28,827 bases of DNA from a virus. Under the pieces are notes generated by a model, which did no database searches, had not been told where the DNA came from, and saw only the letters and a list, made by a program, of their open reading frames with translations. Location: IMG/VR virus record IMGVR_UViG_3300044856_000229, positions 64,001-92,827 of that record, one strand, 5' to 3'. This document shows positions 1 through 9,755 of the stretch, one piece after another (within the stretch, counting starts at the first letter, position 1; every line of letters begins with the position of its first letter). The translations under genes and the position numbers were made by a program.

Positions 1-80
1 TTGGAAAAGAACGTACTACCAACTTTTAATTCATAAATATAACTTCCTTTTTCCTTTTTTTCGCCCCAATTAATTTTCAT
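1..80 (-). CDS. hypothetical protein (partial, 3' end outside window)
   Basis: Minus-strand ORF open to the window edge. ATG at 80 with AAAGGAAA RBS about 9 nt upstream (alternative in-frame ATG at 89). Preceded by promoter at 113-141. Confidence 0.35.
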   Translation of the reverse strand, partial: MKINWGEKKEKGSYIYELKVGSTFFS

Positions 81-112
81 TTTTATCATTTCCTTTCTTT
101 TATTATGTATAT

Positions 113-141
113 ATAATATCATATTTTTTGTTGTTTGTCAA
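113..141 (-). promoter_or_regulatory. sigmaA-type promoter, leftward (TTGACA-17-TATTAT), with A/T-rich UP-like tract at 142-175
   Basis: Minus strand reads TTGACA (141..136), a 17-nt spacer, then TATTAT (118..113). Upstream tract CAATAGTTTTTTAAAATTTTT is paralogous to those at 3130 and 5670. Confidence 0.6.
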
Positions 142-157
142 TAGTTTTTTAAAATTT

Positions 158-640
158 TTACAAATTTTTGGTTTCGCTCACAAAGTATTTTACATGATAG
201 CCATTAAGTAATTCTTTTACTGCGATACTCTGCTTTTGTGTAGCACAATAGCAGTTAATTAAAATATACTTGTCAATGTCGATGTAATTACAAGGAATAT
301 CACAGTCTTTTAATCCATTGATTAATTTTTCCCAGTTCTCAGACTTATTAATTGTAGACTCTATTTTCCACAGGCGGTCTTTTCTTGCTTTTTCTTCTCC
401 CCATTTAACAATCCATACTCCCACAAGGTTAGCAAGAAAAGTTACAATAACTTTTTGCCACAATGGAAAATCTGCAACTGTATAAATAAGAACTACATTA
501 TAGTAACCATAGTAGCCCGCAGAAATAAGGCTCGCGATTGTTTTTCCAGATTTAATTGTTACAATAGATTTGATAGTTGAAAAGATAACATTTACGATTG
601 TTAATAATGAAAATAAAATTAATACATTCATGGGTTTCAC
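158..640 (-). CDS. hypothetical membrane protein (hydrophobic N-terminal half)
   Basis: 160-aa ORF. Own promoter at 662-690 and RBS GAGAAAGTGAG. N-terminal about 90 aa strongly hydrophobic. Confidence 0.7.
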   Translation of the reverse strand: MKPMNVLILFSLLTIVNVIFSTIKSIVTIKSGKTIASLISAGYYGYYNVVLIYTVADFPLWQKVIVTFLANLVGVWIVKWGEEKARKDRLWKIESTINKSENWEKLINGLKDCDIPCNYIDIDKYILINCYCATQKQSIAVKELLNGYHVKYFVSETKNL

Positions 641-661
641 TCACTTTCTCTTTTTTCTTTT

Positions 662-690
662 ATTATACACCTACTTATGGATTTTGTCAA
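662..690 (-). promoter_or_regulatory. sigmaA-type promoter, leftward (TTGACA-17-TATAAT)
   Basis: Minus strand reads TTGACA (690..685), a 17-nt spacer, then TATAAT (667..662). A perfect 22-bp palindrome GGACTATTTTATAAAATAGTCC lies immediately upstream at 691-712. Confidence 0.7.
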
Positions 691-712
691 GGACTATTTT
701 ATAAAATAGTCC
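691..712. repeat. perfect 22-bp palindrome GGACTATTTTATAAAATAGTCC overlapping stop codon of upstream gene
   Basis: The two halves are exact reverse complements. It sits between the stop of gene 699..989 and the -35 at 685-690. Possible terminator hairpin or operator. Confidence 0.6.
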
Positions 713-989
713 TAGTTGTGATTTTTAGCAGTTCACCTGTATTTTTATCATAATAAATAACTGCTTCTGTACCAATAGGACAAACATAATCGTCTATAGA
801 ATAAACCTTATCCCTCTGTTTGTTTTCAAATTCCATTGTGACAGAATCACTTTCTTCATGGTATATCTTTTTTGTGGCGGTCACTTCTGTATATCTTACA
901 TTGCTAGTATAATTTCCTGTAGCAACAATTACTATTATAATGATAATTGCCAAACCTATTCCGGCTAATACGTCACGCCATACTTTCAT
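699..989 (-). CDS. small membrane-anchored protein (N-terminal TM helix)
   Basis: ORF 699..1016. The ATG at 989 has strong RBS GTGAGGTGAtaaaaATG. The upstream ATG at 1016 has none. Run of hydrophobic residues after MKVWRDVLAG. Confidence 0.6.
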   Translation of the reverse strand: MKVWRDVLAGIGLAIIIIIVIVATGNYTSNVRYTEVTATKKIYHEESDSVTMEFENKQRDKVYSIDDYVCPIGTEAVIYYDKNTGELLKITTRTIL

Positions 990-1075
990 TTTTATCACCT
1001 CACATAAACATTTCAATTATTGCAACTATCCAGACTGCAAAGTTACTGAAAAGCAAAGTCCAAAAAATACACATT

Positions 1076-1204
1076 TTACATTTCCTCACTTTCCTTGAAG
1101 ATTTCTTCAATCAACTTTTTAGTTTCTTCTACACCAATGTATAAAGCTGATTTTTCGATTGCATCAAATAAAAGTGTTTTTACTTCCATTTCTTTTTCTG
1201 TCAT
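1076..1204 (-). CDS. small acidic protein, 42 aa (MTEKEMEVKTLLFDAIEKSALYIGVEETKKLIEEIFKESEEM)
   Basis: Unannotated short ORF directly downstream of promoter 1236-1264. RBS AGAGGAGAtaaaaaacATG. Followed by gene 699..989, so the two form an operon. Confidence 0.4.
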   Translation of the reverse strand: MTEKEMEVKTLLFDAIEKSALYIGVEETKKLIEEIFKESEEM

Positions 1205-1235
1205 GTTTTTTATCTCCTCTCTTGACTATGTACTT

Positions 1236-1264
1236 ATTATATCATGGGGGCTGAGGTTTGTCAA
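1236..1264 (-). promoter_or_regulatory. sigmaA-type promoter, leftward (TTGACA-17-TATAAT), -35 inside G5/C5 hairpin
   Basis: Minus strand reads TTGACA (1264..1259), spacer, then TATAAT (1241..1236). Plus-strand GGGGGctgaggtttgtcaaCCCCC is followed by a T-run. Confidence 0.65.
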
Positions 1265-1280
1265 CCCCCATTTTTAATTT

Positions 1281-1589
1281 TTAATGATTAAACCGCAGAT
1301 AATGAGTAAACCATTTTTTACCAAAATTTTCTTCTAACTGTTTTTCCTCTTCTGGATTCGTTTCCATGATTGAGATTTTCATAATTGTATCCCAGTCAAG
1401 AGTTGTAAACCAAGTCCCATCTTTCATACCTTTACTAAAACGGAACGTATCAAGAATAAAATCCATTGTTTCCTGTCGTTTAATTGTTTTCATACATTCT
1501 TCAAGAGAAATAATCTGGCTACCAAAAATTGGTTTAGTTTCACAACCTGTTACCTTCCATCCGCTAATCTTACTTTCAATTTTAATCAT
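1281..1589 (-). CDS. hypothetical protein
   Basis: 102-aa ORF. RBS AAAGAGAGGAAAAAAgATG (a cassette 5'UTR variant). Promoter at 1620-1648. Confidence 0.7.
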   Translation of the reverse strand: MIKIESKISGWKVTGCETKPIFGSQIISLEECMKTIKRQETMDFILDTFRFSKGMKDGTWFTTLDWDTIMKISIMETNPEEEKQLEENFGKKWFTHYLRFNH

Positions 1590-1619
1590 CTTTTTTCCTC
1601 TCTTTCATTTGATATATTT

Positions 1620-1648
1620 ATTATACTACAGGGGATTGAACTTGTCAA
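1620..1648 (-). promoter_or_regulatory. sigmaA-type promoter, leftward (TTGACA-17-TATAAT), -35 embedded in hairpin GGGGATTGAActtgTCAACCCC
   Basis: Minus strand reads TTGACA (1648..1643), spacer, then TATAAT (1625..1620). The hairpin at 1631-1652 is followed by a plus-strand T-run. Family B terminator-promoter element. Confidence 0.7.
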
Positions 1649-1656
1649 CCCCTATT

Positions 1657-1890
1657 TTATAAAATTCCTTCAATCTCGCAACATTTACGGAAAATTTTAA
1701 CACAATCATTCCAAGAGCCATCATCATTTGCATATTCTGCCAGAATATCATCATCCCATCCATCCTCAAGACCATAAGCAAACCATAAGTCCATTACTAC
1801 ATCTTCTCTGATATTTTCTTTAAGAAATGTATCCATCTTTTTGAGTAAATTCTTTCTAGTTTTAATCATCTCATTTCTTGATACTTCCAT
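1657..1890 (-). CDS. hypothetical acidic protein
   Basis: 77-aa ORF. RBS AAGGAAGGGGAAcaaataaATG. Tandem promoters at 1922-1950 and 2087-2115. Confidence 0.65.
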   Translation of the reverse strand: MEVSRNEMIKTRKNLLKKMDTFLKENIREDVVMDLWFAYGLEDGWDDDILAEYANDDGSWNDCVKIFRKCCEIEGIL

Positions 1891-1921
1891 TTATTTGTTC
1901 CCCTTCCTTATCTTTAAATAT

Positions 1922-1950
1922 AGTATACTATAGTCGAGCGGTTTTGTCAA
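1922..1950 (-). promoter_or_regulatory. sigmaA-type promoter, leftward (TTGACA-17-TATACT)
   Basis: Minus strand reads TTGACA (1950..1945), spacer, then TATACT (1927..1922). Flanks are paralogous to the promoter at 8445-8473 (TTGTCAATaTACAAAATAaCCAA). Confidence 0.65.
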
Positions 1951-2007
1951 TATACAAAATAACCAAAAGTAAAGTGTGATTTTGGGATTTTTTGTATAAG
2001 ATACCTA

Positions 2008-2037
2008 TTGACAAATAGTTATTTTATGTGTTATAAT
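2008..2037 (+). promoter_or_regulatory. rightward extended -10 promoter (TTGACA-18-TGtTATAAT) opposing the leftward genes
   Basis: Plus strand has TTGACA at 2008-2013, an 18-nt spacer, TG at -15/-14 and TATAAT at 2032-2037. The -35 sits inside CTATTgacAAATAG. Upstream TTTGTAtAA-N9 mirrors the GTGCA-N9 element of the other three rightward promoters. Confidence 0.55.
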
Positions 2038-2043
2038 TGAAGT

Positions 2044-2133
2044 TTGAGCCTCATGTGCGGGTGAAGCATTCGCCTGCGGCGCACTAATTTTATCACCTTT
2101 TGGAAGGTTTGTCAAGTAGTAAAATTGCACAAA
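2044..2133 (+). ncRNA. candidate short non-coding RNA (about 90-120 nt) from rightward promoter to bidirectional terminator
   Basis: No ORF (ATG TGC GGG TGA). GC-rich imperfect hairpin GUGCGGGUGAAGCAUUCGCCUGCGGCGCAC. Ends at terminator 2134-2165. Partly antisense to the leftward promoter 2087-2115 region. Confidence 0.3.
2087..2115 (-). promoter_or_regulatory. sigmaA-type promoter, leftward (TTGACA-17-TAAAAT), tandem with 1922-1950
   Basis: Minus strand reads TTGACA (2115..2110), spacer, then TAAAAT (2092..2087). No ORF between it and the next promoter. Confidence 0.5.
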
Positions 2134-2165
2134 AAACGCTGAATTAAAATCCAGCGTTTTGTATA
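2134..2165. terminator. bidirectional rho-independent terminator (AACGCTG-9nt-CAGCGTT flanked by A-run and T-run)
   Basis: 7-bp GC-containing stem with U-runs on both strands. Ends gene 2166..2540 (minus) and the rightward sRNA. TTGCACAAAA motif immediately upstream at 2124-2133. Confidence 0.7.
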
Positions 2166-2540
2166 TTATTTTCTCGGCATACTCAGTACAATTTTATATT
2201 TAGTACCATTCAGTTCAAAAAAGAACTCTCTCTCATTGTTAGTCACATCTAAATTTTCCGCCCCCATCTTTTCGACTGATTCTGTCAAAGCTGTGATGAT
2301 AGCTTGCTTTCCTTTGTTCTCTGGTTTTTTCCTTTTGGAAGTATCAAACTTGTAAACAGTTGTTTTTTTCTTGCGGTCTGCCTGTCGTGCCTTTTTAGAT
2401 GCTTTTTCCTGTTCTGGTGTTAATGTGAAAAGCTTTTCCCCCTTGTCTATTCTTTTATCATCTTCTAACATTTGCATTGCTTCTTCTCTGCTAATATCTA
2501 ACAATTTCATGTTACGTTCTATAATTTCATTGTCTGTCAT
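2166..2540 (-). CDS. hypothetical Lys-rich protein
   Basis: 124-aa ORF. RBS AAGAAAGGGtttaataATG. Co-transcribed with 2587..2958, since only a hairpin and no promoter lies between them. Confidence 0.7.
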   Translation of the reverse strand: MTDNEIIERNMKLLDISREEAMQMLEDDKRIDKGEKLFTLTPEQEKASKKARQADRKKKTTVYKFDTSKRKKPENKGKQAIITALTESVEKMGAENLDVTNNEREFFFELNGTKYKIVLSMPRK

Positions 2541-2565
2541 TATTAAACCCTTTCTTTAAATAGTA

Positions 2566-2580
2566 GGGGCTTTTCGCCCC
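2566..2580. terminator. intercistronic hairpin GGGGCttttcGCCCC (attenuator/partial terminator)
   Basis: 5-bp G/C stem with a T-rich plus-strand tail, sitting between the two genes of the operon. Confidence 0.4.
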
Positions 2581-2586
2581 CTTTAA

Positions 2587-2958
2587 TTATTTTGCAAAAA
2601 AGTATGCTTTGCGTTTTTCAACGATTCTATCAACTTTACCTTCACCGCAAAGGGCGGTTACAAGAGAAGTTACACGCTGATTTGAAAGTTCTTTCAAACC
2701 TTCAACTTCTTTCATCAATTCAGAAACGGTAAATCCACTGCCTGTATTTACAAGGTATTCAACAATCTTTTCTTTTAAGCTCTCATTTTCGAGCTGAGTT
2801 GCTGTAGGCTTACGATTTGCAGAAGATTTTTTGTTTACCTGTACAAGCATTTTGTCAAGTTTCTCGATAACTTCTGTATACTTTTCTGCATCAGTTTCTT
2901 TCATAACCTCGATTGCGGTTTCCAGTGCCATAGCGTTTGTCATTTTTTTGTCTGTCAT
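2587..2958 (-). CDS. hypothetical protein, possible winged-helix DNA-binding C-terminus
   Basis: The ORF-track start at 2967 is TTG. The ATG at 2958 has RBS AGGAattgataattATG. C-terminal segment FTVSELMKEV...SNQRVTSLVTALCGEGKVDRIVEKRKAYF resembles a wHTH. Confidence 0.6.
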   Translation of the reverse strand: MTDKKMTNAMALETAIEVMKETDAEKYTEVIEKLDKMLVQVNKKSSANRKPTATQLENESLKEKIVEYLVNTGSGFTVSELMKEVEGLKELSNQRVTSLVTALCGEGKVDRIVEKRKAYFFAK

Positions 2959-3011
2959 AATTATCAATTCCTTTCTTAATAAGAGATTTATTATTTGTTT
3001 TCTATGTTTTT

Positions 3012-3040
3012 ATTATAACACCTGTTGTCTTGTTTGTCAA
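3012..3040 (-). promoter_or_regulatory. sigmaA-type promoter, leftward (TTGACA-17-TATAAT)
   Basis: Minus strand reads TTGACA (3040..3035), spacer, then TATAAT (3017..3012). Context TAACACCTgTTGTCTTGTTTGTCAAGACCTTT is paralogous to the promoter at 9546-9574. Confidence 0.7.
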
Positions 3041-3107
3041 GACCTTTTTTATTTTTCTTTTGGGGGACTTCTCATTGTTTTTCACTTCCTTTCTTTATCT
3101 TGTAATA

Positions 3108-3136
3108 ATAATACCATATTTTTTACATTTTGTCAA
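3108..3136 (-). promoter_or_regulatory. sigmaA-type promoter, leftward (TTGACA-17-TATTAT) with UP-like A/T tract, tandem with 3012-3040
   Basis: Minus strand reads TTGACA (3136..3131), spacer, then TATTAT (3113..3108). Upstream TTTGTCAATGGTTTTTTTAAATTTTTTTCT is a family A element. Confidence 0.55.
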
Positions 3137-3158
3137 TGGTTTTTTTAAATTTTTTTCT

Positions 3159-3881
3159 TTATTTTTCCCACAGTCCAGTTCTCATCTTTTTGTGCTGTCT
3201 ATAACAATAATGACAGATTTCTTTTTCGATTAAAGTATCTTCAAGTCCAGTGTGTTTTTCTACAAAAGTATTATCTTTTGTGATGAATCTATAAAGGATT
3301 TCGGCTGTTACTCTCAGTTGTCCTCTAGTTGTGAGATAATTATTCTCTTCACAAAATCTTCTGTATGATGACATTTTGCATACTACATCACGTGCCATTT
3401 TCATAGTATCGCAGATTTCCAAACCATAAGGAAAGAAATATCTATATTTTGATTTAGTCAACCAACGCTGAGTAGTGTTTAATGTGCCATAGTCAAAACG
3501 CATGTTATGAGCAAAAACCTTTTTTACGTTGTAACGTTCACAACACTCTACAAGCTGTTTTCTGATATTGTAGAAAGATGTTAAAATTCTTTTACCGCTT
3601 TTGATATCTTCCCAGTACATCGGAATTTTCTCTGCATAATATGAGGATTTCATAAGCTCTTTTTCTTCAAGAAAAATGTCAGCGTTTACAAATGACCATG
3701 TTTCAAAAACCTCACCAGTACGTTTGTTGATAACAGCAAAACCGCAATCATAAACCCACATATTAGTTGGAAGCACCTGTTCTAATGATTTGTCTACTGG
3801 ACAAGTTTCTGTATCAATTACAATTGAGTAATCCATTCTTCTGTCAATTTTGTTTGTGTTTTTTCTGTTGATAAATTCCAT
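3159..3881 (-). CDS. DnaQ-like DEDDh 3'-5' exonuclease
   Basis: Exo I IVIDTETC, Exo II FAHNMRFDYGTL and Exo III HTGLEDTLIEKE motifs in the canonical order and spacing. RBS GAGAGAGAGGtaaacaaaaATG. Confidence 0.75.
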   Translation of the reverse strand: MEFINRKNTNKIDRRMDYSIVIDTETCPVDKSLEQVLPTNMWVYDCGFAVINKRTGEVFETWSFVNADIFLEEKELMKSSYYAEKIPMYWEDIKSGKRILTSFYNIRKQLVECCERYNVKKVFAHNMRFDYGTLNTTQRWLTKSKYRYFFPYGLEICDTMKMARDVVCKMSSYRRFCEENNYLTTRGQLRVTAEILYRFITKDNTFVEKHTGLEDTLIEKEICHYCYRQHKKMRTGLWEK

Positions 3882-3914
3882 TTTTGTTTACCTCTCTCTC
3901 ATTTCTATGTCTTT

Positions 3915-3943
3915 ATTATACCATCAGTGAAGAGGTTTGTCAA
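3915..3943 (-). promoter_or_regulatory. sigmaA-type promoter, leftward (TTGACA-17-TATAAT)
   Basis: Minus strand reads TTGACA (3943..3938), spacer, then TATAAT (3920..3915). Confidence 0.7.
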
Positions 3944-4009
3944 GAACTTTTTTAACTTTTTTATAAGTTTTTTATTTGCTTTCTTGTCTTTCTCTTCCTT
4001 ACAAGTATT

Positions 4010-4038
4010 ATAATACCACAAGTCATTGAGGATTGCAA
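4010..4038 (-). promoter_or_regulatory. candidate leftward extended -10 promoter (TTGCAA-17-TGgTATTAT), tandem upstream of 3915-3943
   Basis: Minus strand reads TTGCAAtcctcaatgacttgTGGTATTAT. Resembles the extended -10 promoter at 9920-9948. Confidence 0.35.
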
Positions 4039-4106
4039 GGATTATTTTGAAAAAAATTGCACAAAATGGGATAAATATTTGCGGAAAAATTTGTGCATTT
4101 TTCCTC

Positions 4107-4136
4107 TTGACAAAGTGTGGCGACCTGTGGTATAAT
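4107..4136 (+). promoter_or_regulatory. rightward extended -10 promoter (TTGACA-18-TGgTATAAT) with upstream GTGCA-N9 element
   Basis: TTGACA at 4107-4112, GGCGACCTGTGG spacer, TATAAT at 4131-4136. Core TTTTCCTCTTGACAAA...GGCGACCTGTGGTATAATT is nearly identical to the copy at 8532-8561. Confidence 0.6.
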
Positions 4137-4142
4137 TTTTCG

Positions 4143-4204
4143 GGCAGCAGTCGAGCCTAACTGTCTGTACGGTCATTAAAAAAAGAAAGCGTTTAAACGC
4201 TTTC
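4143..4204 (+). ncRNA. candidate short non-coding RNA (about 60 nt) ending in bidirectional terminator
   Basis: No ORF. Starts GGGCAGCAG, like the 8568 copy which starts GGGACAGCAGG. Contains AGCCUAACUGUCUG, identical to a 14-nt stretch at 8703-8716 inside leftward small gene 8603..8749. The terminator hairpin is shared with the 3' end of leftward small gene 4193..4315. Confidence 0.3.
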
Positions 4205-4210
4205 TTTTAC
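4177..4210. terminator. bidirectional terminator: perfect 20-bp palindrome GAAAGCGTTTAAACGCTTTC flanked by A7 and T4
   Basis: Exact palindrome at 4185-4204 with U-runs on both strands. Overlaps the stop codon of 4193..4315. Confidence 0.7.
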
Positions 4211-4315
4211 ATCTACCATTTTAATTCTGTGCGGTCTGTCTTTTGCCTCTGCATAGCTTGTGGTTTCCTTTACAATTTTTTTACCTTCCATAATCTGATA
4301 AACAACTTTTCTCAT
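4193..4315 (-). CDS. small protein, 40 aa (MRKVVYQIMEGKKIVKETTSYAEAKDRPHRIKMVDVKESV)
   Basis: Unannotated ORF. RBS AAGAGAGGtattaagaATG. Its stop lies inside the bidirectional terminator. Upstream is a degenerate hairpin element GGGTTAAGCCC and a TATAAT at 4344-4349. Confidence 0.4.
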   Translation of the reverse strand: MRKVVYQIMEGKKIVKETTSYAEAKDRPHRIKMVDVKESV

Positions 4316-4377
4316 TCTTAATACCTCTCTTTTCTATGATTTAATTATACTATAGGGTTAAGCCCTATCTTTATTTT

Positions 4378-4635
4378 TTAATCTTTTTCAATAACTCTAA
4401 AGTCCATGTTTAATGCAGATAAGACTTCTTCTGGATTAAGACTGTGCCCTTCACGAATAATGTTTAAATTTGTTCTGTCAATCAATCGAATCCAATCTTC
4501 TGACTTTTCAACAATAATACAAGGTTCATTAGATAAACAAGGACAAAAACCTTTACAATTAGCTTTTCCCTCACCGTGACGTCCTGCATAACAACCCTCG
4601 AGTTCCGCACATCTATAACATTTGTTTTCTACCAT
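4378..4635 (-). CDS. Cys-rich small protein (7 Cys in first 40 aa; probable metal-binding)
   Basis: 85-aa ORF. Cassette RBS AAAGAGAGGAAAgaaaaATG. Pattern CxxC..C...C..C.C..C. Confidence 0.7.
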   Translation of the reverse strand: MVENKCYRCAELEGCYAGRHGEGKANCKGFCPCLSNEPCIIVEKSEDWIRLIDRTNLNIIREGHSLNPEEVLSALNMDFRVIEKD

Positions 4636-4666
4636 TTTTCTTTCCTCTCTTTCATTTGATACATTA

Positions 4667-4695
4667 AGTATACATTACTTTTGGTTATTTGTCAA
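4667..4695 (-). promoter_or_regulatory. sigmaA-type promoter, leftward (TTGACA-17-TATACT) with conserved 5'UTR cassette
   Basis: Minus strand reads TTGACA (4695..4690), spacer, then TATACT (4672..4667). The 29-bp block CCTCTCTTTCATTTGATACATTAAGTATA at 4644-4672 is identical at 6101-6130 and 8241-8270. Confidence 0.7.
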
Positions 4696-4710
4696 TAAGT
4701 AAAAATGTAT

Positions 4711-4742
4711 AAAAAATGAGCTAAAAATCAGCTTATTTTTTA
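4711..4742. terminator. bidirectional terminator (TGAGCT-7nt-AGCTTA between A6 and T6)
   Basis: Short stem with U-runs on both strands. Follows the stop of gene 4746..5093. Confidence 0.5.
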
Positions 4743-4745
4743 CGT

Positions 4746-5093
4746 CTATTCTTTAATAAAAACTGTTATGTTACTAATCCTCTGAGCGGTACTTGCTACG
4801 TCCTCTTTTATTGAATAACCATTTTCTTCTAATAATTTTGTAAATATTGTAAAATTAAGGAAAACATTTTCGTCTTGAACTCTGTCGTATAAATAAAAAT
4901 AATCTTCTTTGCCCCATCTTTCAAAGAATTTTATTCTAAAGCTTGTTACTAAAGGACGACCCTCTTCTGCGTATCCATAAAGTTTAGAAATTATTCTTTC
5001 ATTTATAAATTTTTCTGTATTAGAAGTAGCTTGTATAAAAGCTTCTATACAAATTTTCCGTTTCATTTCTAAAATTTCTTTTGCTTTCATCAC
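4746..5093 (-). CDS. hypothetical protein
   Basis: 115-aa ORF. RBS AAAGAGAGAGtaaataattgtgATG. No promoter between it and upstream gene 5139..5618, only the 15-bp palindrome. Confidence 0.65.
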   Translation of the reverse strand: MMKAKEILEMKRKICIEAFIQATSNTEKFINERIISKLYGYAEEGRPLVTSFRIKFFERWGKEDYFYLYDRVQDENVFLNFTIFTKLLEENGYSIKEDVASTAQRISNITVFIKE

Positions 5094-5125
5094 AATTATT
5101 TACTCTCTCTTTCTTTATTAATATT

Positions 5126-5158
5126 TCTGGGGGAACTCTCAGAAAAATTTTCTGAGAG
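5126..5158. repeat. perfect 15-bp-arm palindrome GGAACTCTCAGAAAA-a-TTTTCTGAGAGTTCC spanning stop codon of NT5C paralog 1
   Basis: The arms are exact reverse complements. The left arm encodes the last residues (GTLRKF) and the TGA stop lies in the right arm. Possible terminator, RNase III site or operator. Confidence 0.6.
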
Positions 5159-5618
5159 TTCCAATAATGTCGTTTACATCAAAGCTGTTCTCGCCCCACT
5201 CTTCTCTATTACGTTTTTCATCATCAAAGAGCCAACCGTTACAATCAACAACTGTGCTTTTTGGTGTGCCATAGTTTACAATTTTAACCTCATCCCATTC
5301 AACACTAGGAAGATGTTTTTCGAGCCATGCAAGTTTTACGCTTGTTACTGCCGTGTTATAAGCTGTCGAACCATATTTGCTGAGCCAACTTACAATACCG
5401 ATTCTATAACCGTTTGCCTGTAATTTATGTAATACTCTTGCAAATACTGAGAAGTTAAACAGCGGTCTTGCTACTGCATAAGGTGTGGTATCCTCATTTT
5501 CCAGATAGTCCAACCAGTTTTCTACACCATAGAAGTTAGCAAGTGTGCCGTCCATGTCAAAGTAAATAGTTCCTTTTGTTTCCATCATTCCTTTAATTGT
5601 ATTCATCATAATCATCAA
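5139..5618 (-). CDS. HAD-superfamily 5'(3')-deoxyribonucleotidase (NT5C-like), paralog 1
   Basis: HAD motif I FDMDGTLANF. WLEKHLP...VKIVNYGTPKSTVV...GWLFDDE matches the NT5C signature W.EK.FG...IVLT.DK...D.LIDD. About 150 aa. The true start may be the internal ATG at 5588 (METKGTIYFDMDGT), by analogy with paralog 2. Confidence 0.7.
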   Translation of the reverse strand: MMIMMNTIKGMMETKGTIYFDMDGTLANFYGVENWLDYLENEDTTPYAVARPLFNFSVFARVLHKLQANGYRIGIVSWLSKYGSTAYNTAVTSVKLAWLEKHLPSVEWDEVKIVNYGTPKSTVVDCNGWLFDDEKRNREEWGENSFDVNDIIGTLRKFF

Positions 5619-5647
5619 ATCCTTTCTTTTTCCTTTTCTTTAATTAT

Positions 5648-5676
5648 ATTATATACTATCTTTTATAATTTGTCAA
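5648..5676 (-). promoter_or_regulatory. sigmaA-type promoter, leftward (TTGACA-17-TATAAT) with UP-like tract
   Basis: Minus strand reads TTGACA (5676..5671), spacer, then TATAAT (5653..5648). Upstream TTTGTCAACAGTTTTTTTAAATTTTTTTCT is a family A element. Confidence 0.7.
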
Positions 5677-5697
5677 CAGTTTTTTTAAATTTTTTTC

Positions 5698-6093
5698 TCA
5701 GATTTTTGTAATTCCTCTATCTCTTAAATACTCACAAAAGCTTTCAGCGTCCAGTATTTCCGCAAGTCCTTTCATTGAAAGGTTCATTTTGTTATACGAA
5801 CAACGCACTTCAATCGGCTTGAAATTTCTTTCTGTGATAGCTGTTGATAAATAATCTTCAACGTTGCTTAATCGAACAACTGTTTTTCTGAAAATGTTTT
5901 TTGAAAGTTCAGCATTCATAAATAAATCATCTTTTACAAGTTCCACGAGTTCATCAAAAGTTTTAATTGTAAATGTTTGTGTCTTTGCTTCTTCTGGTGT
6001 AAGATATTTTACATGTTTCCAGATACTTGTATCAACAAAATTTTTCCATCCTTCCATTCTGTATTCAAATCTATAATCATAAATCTCTTTCAT
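5698..6093 (-). CDS. hypothetical protein
   Basis: The ATG at 6093 has cassette RBS AAAGAGAGGAAAtaaaaATG. The ORF-track N-terminal extension to 6156 reads through the promoter (MLTSSTL is the reverse complement of the TTGACA hairpin) and is rejected. Confidence 0.7.
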   Translation of the reverse strand: MKEIYDYRFEYRMEGWKNFVDTSIWKHVKYLTPEEAKTQTFTIKTFDELVELVKDDLFMNAELSKNIFRKTVVRLSNVEDYLSTAITERNFKPIEVRCSYNKMNLSMKGLAEILDAESFCEYLRDRGITKI

Positions 6094-6124
6094 TTTTATT
6101 TCCTCTCTTTCATTTGATACATTA

Positions 6125-6153
6125 AGTATAACACATAAGGTTGAACTTGTCAA
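6125..6153 (-). promoter_or_regulatory. sigmaA-type promoter, leftward (TTGACA-17-TATACT), -35 in hairpin GGTTGAActtgTCAAC; -35 overlaps stop codon of 6150..6386
   Basis: Minus strand reads TTGACA (6153..6148), spacer, then TATACT (6130..6125). The upstream gene ends ...KMC* with its TGA stop inside TTGACA. Confidence 0.7.
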
Positions 6154-6386
6154 CACATTTTTAAATTTCTTTTTTTCGCTTCTTCAGTTGTTAATCCATA
6201 ACTTTTCCATGGGTCATATTTTCCGAATAAAATTGTTTCATCAACTGTATCACACATTTTATTATTTACATTATAGTCATAATAAAACCACTTTTTACAA
6301 TCCCATTTAAGCGGACAGTGATAACAAGTTGTTGTAGTTGCTACAGTATCCATGTTTATTGCTAATAATGCTTTTATCTTAATCAT
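6150..6386 (-). CDS. small Cys-containing protein
   Basis: 78-aa ORF. RBS AGGAAGAGGGGtaaacaaaaATG. Only a degenerate promoter upstream (TATAAT at 6415-6420, with the -35 degraded to CCACAA). Confidence 0.6.
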   Translation of the reverse strand: MIKIKALLAINMDTVATTTTCYHCPLKWDCKKWFYYDYNVNNKMCDTVDETILFGKYDPWKSYGLTTEEAKKRNLKMC

Positions 6387-6461
6387 TTTTGTTTACCCCT
6401 CTTCCTTTATCTTGATTATAGTATATCATAGTTGTGGAAAAATGTCTATAGGCAAATTGCA

Positions 6462-6496
6462 CAAAAAAAAGAGCTGAAATTTCAGCTCTTTTTTCT
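6462..6496. terminator. bidirectional terminator: perfect 20-bp palindrome AGAGCTGAAATTTCAGCTCT flanked by A8/T6
   Basis: Palindrome at 6470-6489. A TTGCACAAAA motif is directly adjacent at 6457-6466. Ends gene 6496..6681. Confidence 0.7.
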
Positions 6497-6681
6497 TACT
6501 GCTCCTTTGTTACACTTTTCACAAGCGACCGCAATTCCGCAACTCCAAAAGAGTCCATATACGCGGTCATTGCCTTTTTCAAATCTGCCGTTCTCTTGGC
6601 TCTCAACTGCCCTACCATCCAGTTGTATTCTTCTTCATTTAATTCGTAAGGACAACAACCACTTTCTTTTAATTCATACAT
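6496..6681 (-). CDS. small hypothetical protein (61 aa)
   Basis: RBS AAAGAGAGGAAcaaaaaATG. Tandem promoters at 6716-6744 and 6780-6808. Confidence 0.6.
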   Translation of the reverse strand: MYELKESGCCPYELNEEEYNWMVGQLRAKRTADLKKAMTAYMDSFGVAELRSLVKSVTKEQ

Positions 6682-6715
6682 TTTTTGTTCCTCTCTTTCT
6701 TTATCTTATGTACTT

Positions 6716-6744
6716 ATTATATCAGAGATTCGGGCTTTTGTCAA
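6716..6744 (-). promoter_or_regulatory. sigmaA-type promoter, leftward (TTGACA-17-TATAAT)
   Basis: Minus strand reads TTGACA (6744..6739), spacer, then TATAAT (6721..6716). Confidence 0.65.
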
Positions 6745-6779
6745 CCCTCTTCCTCACTTTTATCTCTTTTGTTAATTAT

Positions 6780-6808
6780 AATATATCACATGGGGTTGAA
6801 TTTGTCAA
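6780..6808 (-). promoter_or_regulatory. sigmaA-type promoter, leftward (TTGACA-17-TATATT) in hairpin GGGGTTGAAtttgTCAACCCC, tandem with 6716-6744
   Basis: Perfect 8-bp-stem hairpin at 6792-6811, followed by a plus-strand T-run. Confidence 0.55.
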
Positions 6809-6824
6809 CCCCAATTTTTATTTT

Positions 6825-7172
6825 TTATCTTTCTTTTAATCCATGTATTATAATTGTATGACCGCAATTATCACAAGTATAATAATATTCATCATCACTA
6901 TTTCTATGATGTACTGCATTTACGAACTTATAAGGCTCATTACATTCTGTGCAATATCCGTTGTTCCATGCTTCATCATCATCTTTGTTTTGTAATGTAA
7001 CCAACCCACCAACACCGCAACCAATAGCAACCGCAAGTATAATTCCTACTATCCATTTGACTATTGGTTTGCTGTCCTCTGCTATAATATTTACAATAAA
7101 TATTGCCATGTAACTGCCGACTGTCAAACTCATAAGTATTGATGTTAAAATAAATTCTGCCGTGTAATTCAT
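6825..7172 (-). CDS. membrane protein (2 TM) with C-terminal zinc-ribbon (CTEC...CDNC)
   Basis: The ATG at 7172 has RBS AAAGAGAGGtaaataaaATG. The ORF-track extension to 7232 is the translation of the promoter hairpin and is rejected. Confidence 0.7.
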   Translation of the reverse strand: MNYTAEFILTSILMSLTVGSYMAIFIVNIIAEDSKPIVKWIVGIILAVAIGCGVGGLVTLQNKDDDEAWNNGYCTECNEPYKFVNAVHHRNSDDEYYYTCDNCGHTIIIHGLKER

Positions 7173-7203
7173 TTTATTTACCTCTCTTTCTTTAACTGTC
7201 TTT

Positions 7204-7232
7204 ATTATAACATAAGAGGTTGAACTTGTCAA
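7204..7232 (-). promoter_or_regulatory. sigmaA-type promoter, leftward (TTGACA-17-TATAAT) in hairpin GAGGTTGAActtgTCAACTCC
   Basis: Minus strand reads TTGACA (7232..7227), spacer, then TATAAT (7209..7204). Confidence 0.7.
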
Positions 7233-7236
7233 CTCC

Positions 7237-7533
7237 TTATCTAAAAAATTCTTTTGCTGTCTCTCTGTATTTTTTTGGAAGGCTTGCGATAAATTTTTCT
7301 TTATCTTCTTCTGACAGTGTTCTTCTTAACTGTCTTGTTGTTACTGAGAATGGATTTAGATGATATTTAAGTATTAATGGAAACGCTCTAATGAATACGA
7401 GTGTTTTAAACGCTTCTATAATTTTGCCAAGGATTTCAACAGGTATCCAAAACCATTTCCATTCATTATAAAAACTTAAATAGCTAAGTGCATACATTAC
7501 AATAACAATTACTACTACTAATGATACTCTCAT
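7237..7533 (-). CDS. small membrane protein
   Basis: 98-aa ORF. RBS AAAGAGAGGtaaatgaaATG. Hydrophobic N-terminus. Confidence 0.7.
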   Translation of the reverse strand: MRVSLVVVIVIVMYALSYLSFYNEWKWFWIPVEILGKIIEAFKTLVFIRAFPLILKYHLNPFSVTTRQLRRTLSEEDKEKFIASLPKKYRETAKEFFR

Positions 7534-7565
7534 TTCATTTACCTCTCTTTCTTTTCTATGTTTTC

Positions 7566-7594
7566 ATTATAACATAAAGGGTTGAACTTGTCAA
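7566..7594 (-). promoter_or_regulatory. sigmaA-type promoter, leftward (TTGACA-17-TATAAT) in perfect hairpin GGGTTGAActtgTCAACCC
   Basis: Minus strand reads TTGACA (7594..7589), spacer, then TATAAT (7571..7566). On the minus strand the hairpin is followed by UUUAUGUUAU and on the plus strand by TTTATTTT, so it can act as a terminator in both directions. Confidence 0.7.
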
Positions 7595-7603
7595 CCCTTT
7601 ATT

Positions 7604-7750
7604 TTAAATTAATTGTAAAAGATAACTTCCATCATTGATAGCAAGAATTCTCACAATTTCATCTTTATTCTGAGAAAGAATCTCACCTGTTGAACAGTCA
7701 ATTAATGCGGTTTCATAACCTTTTTCAATGTAAAGCCCTAAAATCATCAT
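7604..7750 (-). CDS. small protein, 48 aa (MMILGLYIEKGYETALIDCSTGEILSQNKDEIVRILAINDGSYLLQLI)
   Basis: Unannotated ORF. RBS AAGAAAGAGGTGttttttATG. Confidence 0.4.
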   Translation of the reverse strand: MMILGLYIEKGYETALIDCSTGEILSQNKDEIVRILAINDGSYLLQLI

Positions 7751-7766
7751 AAAAAACACCTCTTTC

Positions 7767-7913
7767 TTAAACAAGCTTTAACAAGTTACCGTCTTTATCA
7801 AAACAAAAACCCACAGTTTCATCTGATACAACCTCAAAATAGTCTGAGTCATTTACTGGAATCCATAATCCAGCATTTCTAAAAATTTCTAATAATTTTT
7901 CTTTATCATTCAT
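7767..7913 (-). CDS. small protein, 48 aa (MNDKEKLLEIFRNAGLWIPVNDSDYFEVVSDETVGFCFDKDGNLLKLV)
   Basis: Unannotated ORF. RBS AGAAAGAGAGGtaaagaaaATG. Downstream of promoter 7940-7968. Confidence 0.45.
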   Translation of the reverse strand: MNDKEKLLEIFRNAGLWIPVNDSDYFEVVSDETVGFCFDKDGNLLKLV

Positions 7914-7939
7914 TTTCTTTACCTCTCTTTCTAATACCT

Positions 7940-7968
7940 ATTATACCAGTCCTTGACTTATTTGTCAA
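7940..7968 (-). promoter_or_regulatory. sigmaA-type promoter, leftward (TTGACA-17-TATAAT) in inverted repeat CCTTGACttatttGTCAAGG
   Basis: Minus strand reads TTGACA (7968..7963), spacer, then TATAAT (7945..7940). Confidence 0.7.
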
Positions 7969-8239
7969 GGACTATTTTTTTAATTTCATCATCATAGATG
8001 TTATTGTCAGTGTGCATTGTATCCATGATAAGTTTTACATTATCACCAATTTCAAGGTCTGTGCCGTCCTCAAAATAATACTCCCAGTCATTTCCAGTAG
8101 CATCTGTGAAGGTTGCAAGATTGTTATTCACTTCTACAACCTCTGCGGTTCTGGTGTATGTACTCTCATAAGCTCCCACACCACCAATTGCTGTGATACC
8201 CACCATAATTGCTAATACTGTTTTAATCATCTTCATCAT
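7958..8239 (-). CDS. small secreted/membrane-anchored protein (N-terminal signal-like segment)
   Basis: 93-aa ORF. The cassette RBS abuts the first ATG, so the real start may be the ATG at 8230 (MIKTVLAIMVG). Hydrophobic N-terminus followed by an acidic domain. Confidence 0.65.
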   Translation of the reverse strand: MMKMIKTVLAIMVGITAIGGVGAYESTYTRTAEVVEVNNNLATFTDATGNDWEYYFEDGTDLEIGDNVKLIMDTMHTDNNIYDDEIKKIVLDK

Positions 8240-8264
8240 TTCCTCTCTTTCATTTGATACATTA

Positions 8265-8293
8265 AGTATAACACCAAGTTACTCATTTGTCAA
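8265..8293 (-). promoter_or_regulatory. sigmaA-type promoter, leftward (TTGACA-17-TATACT) with conserved 5'UTR cassette
   Basis: Minus strand reads TTGACA (8293..8288), spacer, then TATACT (8270..8265). The -35 lies inside the 3' coding end of small ORF 8279..8413. Confidence 0.7.
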
Positions 8294-8413
8294 GTCTTTT
8301 TTCTCATATTTTTCTAATTCTTCTTCTATTGCATCATACTCATCGTTAAATAATTCACAAGCATTGATTACACACTGCATGATAAATGTTATCTGTTCTT
8401 TAGTAAATTCCAT
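8279..8413 (-). CDS. small acidic protein, 44 aa (MEFTKEQITFIMQCVINACELFNDEYDAIEEELEKYEKKDLTNE)
   Basis: Unannotated ORF. RBS AAAGGGGAAcaaaaacATG. Promoter at 8445-8473. Confidence 0.4.
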   Translation of the reverse strand: MEFTKEQITFIMQCVINACELFNDEYDAIEEELEKYEKKDLTNE

Positions 8414-8444
8414 GTTTTTGTTCCCCTTTCTTTATCTTGATTAT

Positions 8445-8473
8445 AGTATACTACAAGCCAATAGGTTTGTCAA
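8445..8473 (-). promoter_or_regulatory. sigmaA-type promoter, leftward (TTGACA-17-TATACT)
   Basis: Minus strand reads TTGACA (8473..8468), spacer, then TATACT (8450..8445). Paralogous to the promoter at 1922-1950. Confidence 0.65.
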
Positions 8474-8531
8474 TGTACAAAATAGCCAATTTCGGGAAGC
8501 AAATTATTTAATATTTTGTGCAATTTTCCTC

Positions 8532-8561
8532 TTGACAAACTGCGGCGACCTGTGGTATAAT
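8532..8561 (+). promoter_or_regulatory. rightward extended -10 promoter (TTGACA-18-TGgTATAAT) with upstream GTGCA-N9 element
   Basis: TTGACA at 8532-8537 and TATAAT at 8556-8561. Near-identical core to the copy at 4107-4136. GTGCA ends 9 nt before the -35. Confidence 0.6.
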
Positions 8562-8567
8562 TAGTTG

Positions 8568-8608
8568 GGACAGCAGGCGACCATAGCGGTTGCCCATTTC
8601 TTTTAATA
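8568..8608 (+). ncRNA. candidate short non-coding RNA (about 40 nt) antisense to 3' end of leftward gene 8603..8749
   Basis: Starts GGGACAGCAGG. Hairpin GGCGACCatagcGGTTGCC followed by CATTTCTTTT. Overlaps the stop codon region of the convergent small gene. Confidence 0.3.
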
Positions 8609-8749
8609 CTCTATAATTGTATGCATCAATCGCATCAACTGTTCATTGGTAAACTCTCCCGACTCACAATCTTCACAAAACATAACAGTTAGTGGACTCT
8701 CAAAGCCTAACTGTCTGATTACATTATCCATCATTTCTTTTACTGTCAT
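8603..8749 (-). CDS. small protein, 48 aa (MTVKEMMDNVIRQLGFESPLTVMFCEDCESGEFTNEQLMRLMHTIIEY)
   Basis: Unannotated ORF. RBS AGGAGGtcatgacaATG. An alternative start 2 codons upstream is too close to the RBS. Promoter at 8781-8809. Confidence 0.45.
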   Translation of the reverse strand: MTVKEMMDNVIRQLGFESPLTVMFCEDCESGEFTNEQLMRLMHTIIEY

Positions 8750-8780
8750 TGTCATGACCTCCTTCTCTTAACTTGATTAT

Positions 8781-8809
8781 AGTATACTACAATCAGATTG
8801 ATTTGTCAA
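8781..8809 (-). promoter_or_regulatory. sigmaA-type promoter, leftward (TTGACA-17-TATACT)
   Basis: Minus strand reads TTGACA (8809..8804), spacer, then TATACT (8786..8781). Confidence 0.65.
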
Positions 8810-9045
8810 TAGGAAAATAAAAAATATTTTAAAAATATTTTTGCTTTCCCGCATTAATCCTTTACTACTGGAATGCTGTAGTGTTGCGTTACTTTAACGC
8901 TTTACCACTTTAGTGTAGTGAAGTCTTGCCCTCATTATCTTTGTTATTCTATTAACATTCCTGTTAATTTTTTAACAATCTGCGTCCCACGAACCGCAGA
9001 ACGTAGATAAAGAGAGAACGTTTGTTCTCTCCTCTCTTTATCTCT
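8810..9045. other. 235-bp non-coding block with tandem AAAATATTTT palindromes, multiple short G/C hairpins and inverted repeat TGTTAA-N4-TTAACA
   Basis: No ORF with an RBS. Partly paralogous to 9840-9960 (ACTACTGG(G)AAT(G/C)C..GT and the TGTTAATTTTTTAACAA element). Candidate structured RNA or regulatory region. Confidence 0.35.
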
Positions 9046-9513: not shown

Positions 9514-9545
9514 TCTTTCTTTCTTTTATCTTTATCTTTATATTT

Positions 9546-9574
9546 ATTATAACACCTTTGTGCTTGCTTGTCAA
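9546..9574 (-). promoter_or_regulatory. sigmaA-type promoter, leftward (TTGACA-17-TATAAT)
   Basis: Minus strand reads TTGACA (9574..9569), spacer, then TATAAT (9551..9546). Paralogous to the promoter at 3012-3040. Confidence 0.7.
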
Positions 9575-9635
9575 GACCTTTCTTTGTGTCTTTGTCTTGC
9601 CTCTTGGCTCAAGGGTTAGCCTGAGCTAACCCATC

Positions 9636-9755
9636 CTATGCCAGATAAGTCTCGAGGATAGAGCCACCTACTCTCTTGGCAGTTAGTTCAGCCAAACTTT
9701 TGCTACTTGTCAATAAAACGAATTTTCCCTCTCTATCAATAACCTCATACTTCAT
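9636..9755 (-). CDS. small protein, 39 aa (MKYEVIDREGKFVLLTSSKSLAELTAKRVGGSILETYLA)
   Basis: Unannotated ORF. RBS AAAGAGAGGAAcaaaaacATG. Followed by hairpin GGGTTAGCtcagGCTAACCC. Promoter at 9792-9820. Confidence 0.45.
   Translation of the reverse strand: MKYEVIDREGKFVLLTSSKSLAELTAKRVGGSILETYLA

Follow-up and report, generated by a model that had tools for sequence, protein, structure and literature searches.

Why should a phage write a stem-loop across the -35 hexamer of its own consensus promoters? This question was raised by a 28,827-nt stretch of DNA, positions 64,001 to 92,827 of the IMG/VR virus record IMGVR_UViG_3300044856_000229, hereafter called the window. The window is phage-like at 32% G+C and, from position 1 to ~13,400, carries almost exclusively small genes on the minus strand. 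Within this region, the initial annotation had described five copies of an element in which a TTGACA box lies inside a perfect hairpin, and had read it as a terminator fused to a promoter. The elements proved to be the -35 regions of strong, host-type consensus early promoters that also encode a stem-loop. We put at roughly 0.6 the probability that they are composite regulatory cassettes of the PeSL (promoter-early stem-loop) type known from T4-type phages, in which the hairpin would end the upstream unit and the homology between cassettes would serve recombination.

Promoter array of the early region

A consensus promoter scan of the minus strand of the window identified 24 sites that read TTGACA-N17-TATAAT, allowing one mismatch at most to the -10 hexamer. 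Nearly all of them had the 17-bp spacing and lay upstream of small genes, and A-rich tracts preceded most. Most cassettes continued with a leader of ~25-35 nt and an ATG preceded by a strong Shine-Dalgarno sequence (aaagagagg), and the intergenic space per cassette was ~70-90 bp. When the motif GGTTGACAAGTTCAACC was searched with up to three mismatches, five minus-strand matches were found in the window, as compared with 0.09 expected from dinucleotide shuffles, and these (1634-1650, 6139-6155, 6794-6810, 7218-7234, and 7580-7596) corresponded to the five copies described initially. In all five, TTGACA was followed after 17 bp by TATAAT, TATACT, or TATATT, and then by a strong ribosome-binding site (RBS) and an ATG.

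The positions of the hairpin-bearing promoters, denoted below by the start of the -35 hexamer, were closely tied to the neighboring genes. Where such a promoter directly follows a gene, the upstream stop codon lies between 16 nt before and 11 nt after the -35 start; for the second promoters of two tandem pairs, 6744 and 3040, it lies 80-118 nt to the 5' side. The RBS and ATG follow 30-45 nt downstream of the -10 hexamer. The cassette would run from the upstream stop through an A-rich, UP-like region, a consensus sigma-A/sigma-70 promoter and a short leader to the Shine-Dalgarno sequence and ATG. In about one third of the cassettes, the stem-loop closing the upstream unit would overlie the -35 hexamer together with half of the spacer, the first, because only the short intergenic space noted above is available. 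At the 3' end of the upstream transcript, this stem-loop would most likely attenuate or terminate read-through, stabilize the 3' end, or both, and host RNA polymerase would start afresh on the same DNA.

Stem-loops at individual promoters

The stability of each element was assessed by folding the gene-strand (sense) RNA, and is given as the free energy (dG, kcal/mol) with its z-score; all of the elements lie on the minus strand. Of the five hairpins first described as perfect, two indeed were. The element at 7566-7602 (-35 7594-7589, -10 7571-7566), which drives gene 7237-7533, has a perfect 12-bp stem at 7574-7602, AUAAAGGGUUGA-CAAGU-UCAACCCUUUAU (dG -15.6, z -4.5), and that at 6780-6813 (-35 6808-6803, -10 TATATT), the first promoter of the tandem pair 6808/6744, has a perfect 9-bp stem at 6791-6813, UGGGGUUGA-CAAAU-UCAACCCCA (dG -14.4, z -3.8). 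Two others were imperfect. The element at 1620-1655 (-35 1648-1643, -10 1625-1620) lies between gene 1657-1890, whose stop precedes it, and gene 1281-1589, which it drives, and its stem at 1628-1655, GGGGUUGA-CAAGU-UCAA(U)CCCC, contains one bulged base (dG -13.2, z -3.2). At 7204-7240 (-35 7232-7227), upstream of gene 6825-7172, the stem at 7212-7240 has one A.C mismatch and one G.U pair (dG -8.5, z -1.3). The fifth copy, 6141-6158, forms no significant hairpin: the element at 6125-6154 (-35 6153-6148) is vestigial, retaining only a 5-bp TTGA(C)/TCAA core, and its segment 6140-6154 gave a dG of -2.9 and a z-score of 0.0.

Meanwhile, two copies that had been set apart as looser versions were found to be real hairpins. 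One of them, at 1236-1271 (-35 1264-1259, -10 1241-1236), drives a 42-aa gene (1076-1204), and its stem at 1244-1271, AUGGGGGUUGA-CAAACC-UCAGCCCCCAU, with a U.G wobble on the sense strand, was the most stable of all (dG -19.4, z -4.7), the antisense fold being weaker (-15.5). The other, at 6716-6755 (-35 6744-6739), drives gene 6496-6681; its core at 6732-6747, GGGUU-GACAAA-AGCCC with a U.G pair, is extended by an outer stem to 6725-6755 (dG -10.6, z -2.2), and the antisense strand does not fold.

In addition, three elements absent from the initial annotation were found. The promoter at 7940-7974 (-35 7968-7963) has a perfect stem of 10-11 bp at 7947-7974, AGUCCUUGAC-AAAUAA-GUCAAGGACU (dG -16.9, z -6.5), the loop of which holds the stop codon of the upstream gene 7958-8239. 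At 3012-3043 (-35 3040-3035), the second promoter of a tandem pair, which drives gene 2587-2967, carries a short stem at 3027-3043, GUCUUG-ACAAA-CAAGAC (dG -6.5, z -2.6). At 662-713 (-35 690-685), a palindrome at 690-713 (AGGACUAUUUUA/UAAAAUAGUCCU; dG -10.9, z -5.0) abuts the -35 hexamer and overlaps the stop of gene 699-1016. Thus, seven elements contain strong significant stems (1244-1271, 7947-7974, 7574-7602, 6791-6813, 1628-1655, 690-713, and 6725-6755), and the stem overlaps the -35 hexamer in most hairpin promoters and abuts it at 690.

Between the tandem promoters 3136 and 3040, a mini-ORF (open reading frame) encoding MRSPPKEK (3049-3075, minus strand) with a good RBS ends 5 nt before the 3027-3043 stem-loop. 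MRSPPK was found at two paralogous sites per relative with synonymous codon changes, and was frame-shifted or extended in two copies. The ORF may either encode a leader peptide through which hairpin formation could be coupled to translation, or be what is left of a lost gene.

Conservation of the stems among relatives

To follow the stems through evolution, orthologous promoters were paired by synteny, without selection for hairpins, in three IMG/VR contigs (..131786, ..135203, and 3300013901_000013; hereafter R131786, R135203, and R13901) that share 84-96% identity with the window in conserved blocks. In the orthologs of promoter 7594, the arms GGGTTGA/TCAACCC were replaced by GGGGTTGA/TCAACCCC, R135203 had GGGG/CCCC, and R13901 had GGGCTTGA-caagc-TCAAGCCC, a flip from G-C to C-G. 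The stem of 1264, GGGGGTTGA/TCAGCCCCC, was changed in a compensatory manner to GGGGCTTG/CAAGCCCC in R13901, in which the ortholog of 1648 also read GGGGTTGA-caaacc-TCAACCCC. In the orthologs of 6744, the stem reappeared in a shifted register (GGGCTT-GACA-AAGCCC and GGGGCTT-GACA-AAGCCCC). In R131786, G replaced the mismatched A of promoter 7232 and restored the pair, and the 3040 stem gained one pair in R13901 to reach 7 bp (GGTCTTG/CAAGACC). The arms of 7968 were invariant around a variable loop, and the palindrome at 690-713 was kept in the relatives. Stems were thus kept in the relatives, except at 6153 (the copy 6141-6158), where none of the three had one, and at 9820, where the stem was likewise not conserved.

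More distant homologs of the downstream genes (33-57% amino acid identity) were preceded by quite different hairpins at the same place, such as GGGGTTGAC-attta-GTCGACCCC, the distant ortholog of the 1648 element in contigs L144 and L001, and GGGGTT-gacaaat-AACCCC. In contig L023, the homolog of the gene downstream of 7968 was preceded by GGGCTTG-acaaataa-CAAGCCC, and distant homologs of the gene downstream of 690 had hairpins spanning the -35 hexamer instead of abutting it. In the fetched phage loci, a stem score of at least 7 was reached by 27.6% of 816 unique consensus promoters, as compared with 3.3% after shuffling of the flanks with the promoter hexamers fixed. Upon removal of the promoters matching the search patterns (TTGACA..TTCAA), stems were still found in 175 of 675, against ~38 expected. 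The stems across these loci fell into two positional classes, one upstream of the -35 hexamer and the other spanning it. The compensatory changes in orthologous promoters showed that the stems are maintained by selection, and bore out the initial placement of the -35 hexamer within the stem-loop. Since pairing was kept through compensatory changes and register shifts, what is conserved would be a nucleic-acid structure rather than an operator for a protein.

Strand of the structure and termination in the gene direction

Several features pointed to the gene-strand RNA as, most likely, the selected structure. Among interior non-Watson-Crick pairs on the gene strand, G.T outnumbered A.C by 32 to 15 (binomial p = 0.009, an optimistic value given that partly related sequences were counted). 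The sense folds of 1648, 1264, and 6744 were stronger than their antisense counterparts, and a motif recurrent in Enterococcus phages, GGGGUUGA/UCAGCCCC, has its U.G pair on the gene strand. In addition, T after the last G-C pair was modestly enriched on the sense strand of 100 hairpin promoters (0.446 vs 0.363, p = 2e-5). Because the stem lies upstream of the start of its own promoter, the only RNA in which it could occur is the 3' end of the upstream transcript. In the gene direction, its likeliest role appears to be to attenuate or terminate transcription or to protect that 3' end. That the hairpins attenuate or terminate sense transcription, and with what efficiency, is our inference.

A number of observations weigh against this explanation. 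The stretch of T/U first reported on both strands was found mainly on one of them: most promoter hairpins had 5-7 U of 8 in the plus-strand (antisense) tail, and the sense tails had only 1-5 U of 8. By the usual rules, the promoter hairpins would thus be weak intrinsic terminators in the gene direction. Significant stem-loops (dG -6.5 to -19.4, z down to -6.5) were present at only ~8-9 of the 24 promoters, with ~15 lacking a stem, so that the array is not uniformly insulated and the string of insulated single-gene units suggested at first was an overstatement. The stem-less consensus early promoters on the minus strand, in the region 113-9948, have -35 starts at 141, 1950, 2115, 3136, 3943, 4695, 5676, 6448 (TAGACA), 8293, 8473, 8809, 9574, 9820, and 9948, and of these 141, 3136, and 5676 directly abut an upstream stop. 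Furthermore, the co-variation of arms seen in the syntenic orthologs did not extend to an unbiased set of 108 TTGACAnnTTCAA-N10-TATAAT promoters from viral contigs, in which the outer stem was paired in 40.6% as compared with 38.2% in shuffles, and slid controls were as high. At least four outer pairs were formed in 12 of these 108, against 2.7 expected, and the hairpin promoters are therefore a distinct subset. Because this global test was negative, the inner TTGA/TCAA pairing alone was not taken as evidence of a hairpin. The relatedness of the sequences behind the wobble count, and behind the breakpoint count given below, belongs on the same side.

The poor sense tails may be understood from the layout of the cassette. 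In promoter-embedded stems, the spacer and the -10 hexamer occupy the 3' flank on the gene strand, so the U-tract is short or interrupted. In other phages, a shorter stem leaves a canonical U-run inside the spacer, as in aaaaaggggTTGACAaacccctttttcc and ggggTTGACAaacccctttttcc and in aaaggcTTGACAcgttcaagcctttttgtTATAGT of Yersinia phage fHe-Yen9-03. Conventional terminators in the same region of the window have sense tails with 6-8 U of 8: a bidirectional intrinsic terminator, A6-GAGCUGAAAUUUCAGCUC-U6, lies at 6465-6494 between the stop of gene 6496-6681 and promoter 6448, and similar ones were found at 4181-4208 and 2131-2162. Full terminators stand directly upstream of promoters 6448 and 2115. 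Sense-direction attenuation or termination by the promoter hairpins of this window would probably be leaky, and of the combined terminator and promoter first proposed, the match to a studied class (PeSLs, discussed below) stood, with the sense U-tracts as its weak side.

The tails also bear on the alternative that the hairpins mainly terminate antisense (plus-strand) transcription, or are truly bidirectional, and so shield the early array from convergent or spurious transcripts. A simple terminator scan of 1-14000 placed 13 of 14 terminator-like sites on the plus strand, the plus-strand tails are U-rich as described, four consensus plus-strand promoters lie inside the array, and in one relative a convergent ORF lies beyond its far end. 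However, the early region has 39% T on the plus strand as compared with 29% on the minus strand, and at least five T in 8 nt occur at a frequency of 0.16 vs 0.05, i.e., are about three times likelier there; the strand bias of the scan is largely compositional and was for that reason not used to assign direction. The T-run on the plus strand corresponds, on the other strand, to the A-rich tract that precedes the -35 hexamer, and hairpin-less promoters have it too. The preference for G.U over A.C and the stronger sense folds favor the sense strand, 6744 lacks any plus-strand fold, and each plus-strand promoter has its own terminator-like hairpin shortly downstream (4181-4208, 8576-8594, 10135-10148, and 2131-2162). 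We thus regard a mainly antisense function as unlikely, although antisense or bidirectional termination would be compatible with composite cassettes whose hairpin acts on the upstream transcript.

The four plus-strand promoters (2008-2037, 4107-4136, 8532-8561, and 10065-10094) have 18-bp spacers; downstream of each lies a structured, GC-rich stretch of ~40-80 nt, then its terminator-like hairpin, and no ORF. These units look like small non-coding RNAs embedded in the early array. At E <= 1, no Rfam family was matched in 1-14000, and a tRNA/tmRNA scan found no such gene in the window. Promoters 2008 (plus) and 2115 (minus) converge on a GC-rich segment of ~50 nt (2040-2090) and would give complementary small transcripts, and promoters 9948 (minus) and 10065 (plus) are divergent, back to back, ~120 bp apart. 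A motif TTGTGCAA(T/C) lies ~10-20 nt upstream of the -35 hexamer at promoters 2115, 4107, 6448, 8532, 9948, and 10065 (at about 2121-2129, 4085-4095, 6449-6462, 8512-8522, 9955-9965, and 10048-10058, respectively). Most of these promoters drive putative non-coding RNAs, and the motif may either bind a factor or label a second family of cassettes.

Three further candidates were considered and rejected. RNase III processing sites, as in the early mRNAs of T7 and SP82, would require far longer stems than those of 8-12 bp found here, RNase III substrates being much longer. Roadblock-assisted termination by a promoter-bound polymerase was dismissed on the ground that the elongation complex would collide before transcribing the hairpin. 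A divergent plus-strand promoter based on the TTGAAC of the other arm reached at best 9 of 12 matches, at 1636, with no consistent -10 hexamer and no ORF.

Promoter cassettes as sites of gene exchange

Alignment with the three relatives revealed the early region as a patchwork riddled with insertions and deletions, whereas the adjacent block 10,366-14,000 was collinear. R131786 has an extra 519-bp gene cassette between two promoters; promoter 1264 of the window is the exact chimera of the two, with the crossover in TTGACAAA, and the distal promoter in R131786 has kept an orphan 3' arm. In R135203, one chimeric promoter stands in place of promoter 8473, a 44-aa gene, and promoter 8293 of the window. 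In R131786, promoter 7232 and its leader are fused to the gene at 6150-6386, with two cassettes skipped. The two halves of promoter 6153, 5' and 3', match two different promoters of R135203, and its broken stem is accounted for by this chimeric origin. R135203 also has a 442-bp gene between promoters 6808 and 6744, so this tandem pair is read as the deletion scar of a lost cassette; as a practical rule, a tandem-promoter pair here marks a lost gene. In R13901, the same cassettes occur in a different order. Overall, 23 of 38 distinct ends of high-scoring segment pairs (HSPs) fell in promoter cassettes, which cover 26% of the region (p = 1e-5, optimistic in that HSP ends are approximate breakpoints, not fully independent, and drawn from partly related sequences). 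The alignments indicate, beyond the initial annotation, that promoter cassettes are the breakpoints of gain, loss, replacement, and reordering of gene cassettes between relatives, at which the junctions leave chimeric promoters. The cassettes resemble one another over ~75-100 bp and would therefore offer the homology for deleting, inserting, replacing, and reordering small ORFan genes; they would mark the sites where early "host-takeover" ORFans swap between phages.

Such copying raises the possibility that the hairpins are functionless passengers of one hairpin promoter spread within the genome and between phages. The five copies first described do have 15-19 nt in common, along with similar leaders, the duplication and recombination of cassettes are clear, and recombination yields both stem-less chimeras (6153) and orphan arms (at 16343 in R131786). 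Nevertheless, other promoters carry stems of quite different sequence and register, pairing survives double substitutions in orthologs, the position is taken by different hairpins in distant homologs, and stems are ~5- to 8-fold enriched over shuffles with the hexamers fixed. All these findings made passengers a poor candidate in our judgment.

Equally improbable, in our estimation, is that the stem-loop acts as a DNA hairpin or cruciform that stimulates or targets cassette recombination, for example as the substrate of a structure-specific nuclease. This would fit the clustering of breakpoints in cassettes, and a sigma-factor-like protein encoded in the window has matches to HNH and endonuclease VII profiles in its C-terminal part. 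The observed crossovers, however, lay in TTGACAAA, in the -10 hexamer and leader, or at the RBS/ATG, and not specifically in stems; junctions also occurred at hairpin-less promoters (8473/8293), and the preference for G.U speaks for RNA or for a single strand. Moreover, stems of 8-12 bp extrude poorly from duplex DNA.

Two hairpins without a complete promoter were observed at breakpoints. A perfect inverted repeat of 15 bp (GGAACTCTCAGAAAA/TTTTCTGAGAGTTCC) occupies 5132-5162, where gene 5139-5618 stops, and is not accompanied by a promoter; in each of the three relatives, the alignment breaks at position 5132. At 4352-4368 and 4330-4345, a gene-strand hairpin ATAGGGCTTAACCCTAT is directly followed by TATAAT with no recognizable -35 hexamer, at a breakpoint common to two relatives (4335/4349); it may be a cassette in which the hairpin replaces the -35 hexamer.

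Distribution among phages

The exact 19-mer GGGTTGACAAGTTCAACCC was found in 34 IMG/VR contigs of several unrelated size classes, and in almost all of them a TATAAT-like -10 hexamer lay exactly 17 bp downstream, being poor only in the GC-richer L013 and L014. In 596 Gb of bacterial genomes, the same 19-mer had 5 matches, as compared with ~4 estimated by chance, and at this chance-level count it was rejected both as a host motif and as a pointer to the host. Short BLAST matches to the promoter plus leader were obtained in Enterococcus phages of ~40 kb (Efquatrovirus), 85 kb, and 140-147 kb, in a Staphylococcus phage, and in a Yersinia jumbo phage. Efquatrovirus phages of E. faecalis, e.g., VEsP-2 and vB_Efs19_KEN07, carry aaaaggggTTGACAagttcagccccaactgaTATACT; in these two, the cassette is repeated before consecutive small genes and its presence or absence differs between them. 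In Yersinia phage fHe-Yen9-03 (LT960552.1, ~10,960-11,010 and 10,690-10,740), the same design, represented by aaaggcTTGACAcgttcaagcctttttgtTATAGT and ggggTGACAaagctcaccccgtttgaTATACT, precedes consecutive small genes and is not annotated as promoters in the record. As for the window itself, its packaging region shares 66-70% nucleotide identity with a human-faecal phage contig and with Enterococcus phages of ~134-142 kb, which were the best cultured matches at ~68-70% over the packaging genes.

Taken further, this distribution might suggest that the -35-hairpin promoter, present in Enterococcus siphoviruses of ~40 kb, in myoviruses of ~150 kb and, in analogous form, in the Yersinia jumbo phage, is a horizontally mobile cassette across unrelated phage families, a recombinase-free, integron-like recombination site whose stem-loop, as RNA or single-stranded DNA, aids both exchange and insulation. 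We regard this extension as speculative and rather doubtful.

The least probable explanation is an operator role, in which a dimeric regulator of the phage or the host would bind the palindromes and so turn off or adjust the early promoters. In its favor, the inverted repeat over the -35 hexamer is in the classic position for a repressor, and the 19-mer core recurs exactly in the 34 viral contigs. Against it, the center of symmetry varies from ~3.5 to 7.5 nt from the -35 start within one genome, the arms are unrelated (TTGA/TCAA with GGGG/CCCC, GGGC/GCCC, GGGGCTT/AAGCCCC, AGTCCTTGAC/GTCAAGGACT, GGTCTTG/CAAGACC, and the upstream AGGACTATTTTA palindrome), orthologs alter both arms in a compensatory manner and tolerate G.U, loops are 4-8 nt long, and a palindrome is absent from the majority of the array's promoters. 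The operator, also raised in the initial annotation, was rejected because one dimeric protein cannot read such varied registers and arms, as base-pairing can.

Comparison with known systems

PeSLs consist of a strong sigma-70-like promoter with an AT-rich region on its upstream side and a stem-loop, in many cases polyG/polyC, and are known from the T4-type phages RB49/phi1, PST/T4, and nt-1/KVP40 (Arbiol et al. 2010, PMC2839356; Comeau et al. 2014, PMC4122927). Five subclasses have been distinguished by the position of the stem, one of which overlaps the -35 hexamer (PMC2839356; PMC4122927), and one PeSL stem-loop cut reporter expression as much as rrnB T1 (PMC2839356). PeSLs are intergenic and flank ORFans in hyperplastic regions, and recombination between them explains insertions and deletions and yields mini-circles (PMC2839356; PMC4122927). 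The cassettes of the window were in good agreement with these properties. As in PeSLs, whose stem-loop may lie upstream of the -35 hexamer, over it, in the spacer, or over the -10 hexamer, the stem-loop is within or next to the promoter, and the cassette is placed between the upstream stop and the downstream Shine-Dalgarno sequence and ATG. Their genes are ORFans of a hyperplastic early region, 16 of the 18 early ORFs tested having no PHROG family match. Their insertions, deletions, and replacements are bounded by cassettes with chimeric motifs, with four clean junctions here (1264, 8473/8293, 7232-6386, and 6153). They differ from PeSLs in that the present gut phage is a low-GC myovirus of ~150 kb, distantly related to Enterococcus phages of ~140 kb and with Firmicute-style promoters, not a T4-like phage of Gram-negatives; this lineage was taken as the historical scope of the PeSL family and not as part of its mechanism. 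In addition, overlap with the -35 hexamer predominates, whereas the commonest PeSL positions are between the -35 and -10 hexamers or over the -10. The present cassettes were described from sequence, whereas PeSLs have been assayed for promoter and terminator activity and for mini-circles. In the literature searched, we found no use of the PeSL concept for Gram-positive phages, and searches on SPO1 host-takeover terminators and on cappable-seq reports of overlapping promoter/terminators gave no description either.

Other systems resemble the cassettes in part. Like canonical intrinsic terminators, which are often bidirectional, they have a GC-rich stem-loop right after the stop with an A-run before and a T-run after it, but their gene-strand U-tract is short or interrupted. 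Mycobacteriophage stoperators are likewise short regulatory sites repeated in intergenic DNA. Stoperators are, however, asymmetric repressor-binding sites, whereas the present elements are promoters with co-varying stems. The morons of lambdoid phages are also small autonomous transcription units (promoter-gene-terminator), but have no conserved flanking sequences mediating their movement (PMC2839356). In the early sigma-A promoter arrays of SPO1-like phages (Herelleviridae), for example Listeria phage CKA15, many consensus promoters with AT-rich UP elements similarly precede small early genes of unknown function (PMC12282133). The ONT-cappable-seq study of CKA15 also describes highly transcribed non-coding stretches among them, and the passages searched contain no mention of -35-overlapping stem-loops or cassette shuffling (PMC12282133).

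The elements are a genuine selected feature, and to read them as a promoter combined with a terminator-like hairpin is reasonable and has precedent. A composite promoter/terminator cassette described only for T4-type phages of Gram-negatives would thereby be extended to phages with Firmicute-type promoters, among them cultured phages of Enterococcus faecalis that serve in therapy research. Such a design appears to offer a general way of fitting autonomous single-gene units into large phage genomes. For annotation, terminator finders and promoter finders would each catch half of such an element; for engineering, the cassettes would be compact insulated expression units of ~90 bp.

Other genes of the window

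From 13,472 onward, larger plus-strand genes follow the early array, including that of the sigma-factor-like protein and one with a weak match to the terminase large subunit. The former (13472-14581, plus strand) encodes 369 aa and matches a phage sigma-factor PHROG at E = 5e-48, and its C-terminal 50 residues match HNH and endonuclease VII. Such a fusion of sigma-factor and HNH-type parts is unusual, and the gene adjoins a divergent promoter region at 13386-13448. On the minus strand, 11627-12484 encodes a 285-aa protein matching tRNA-His guanylyltransferase (Thg1-like, E = 1.5e-84), in a window without tRNA genes. Genes 5139-5618 and 9046-9513, also on the minus strand, both match a 5'-3' deoxyribonucleotidase PHROG and appear to be paralogs within the shuffled early region.

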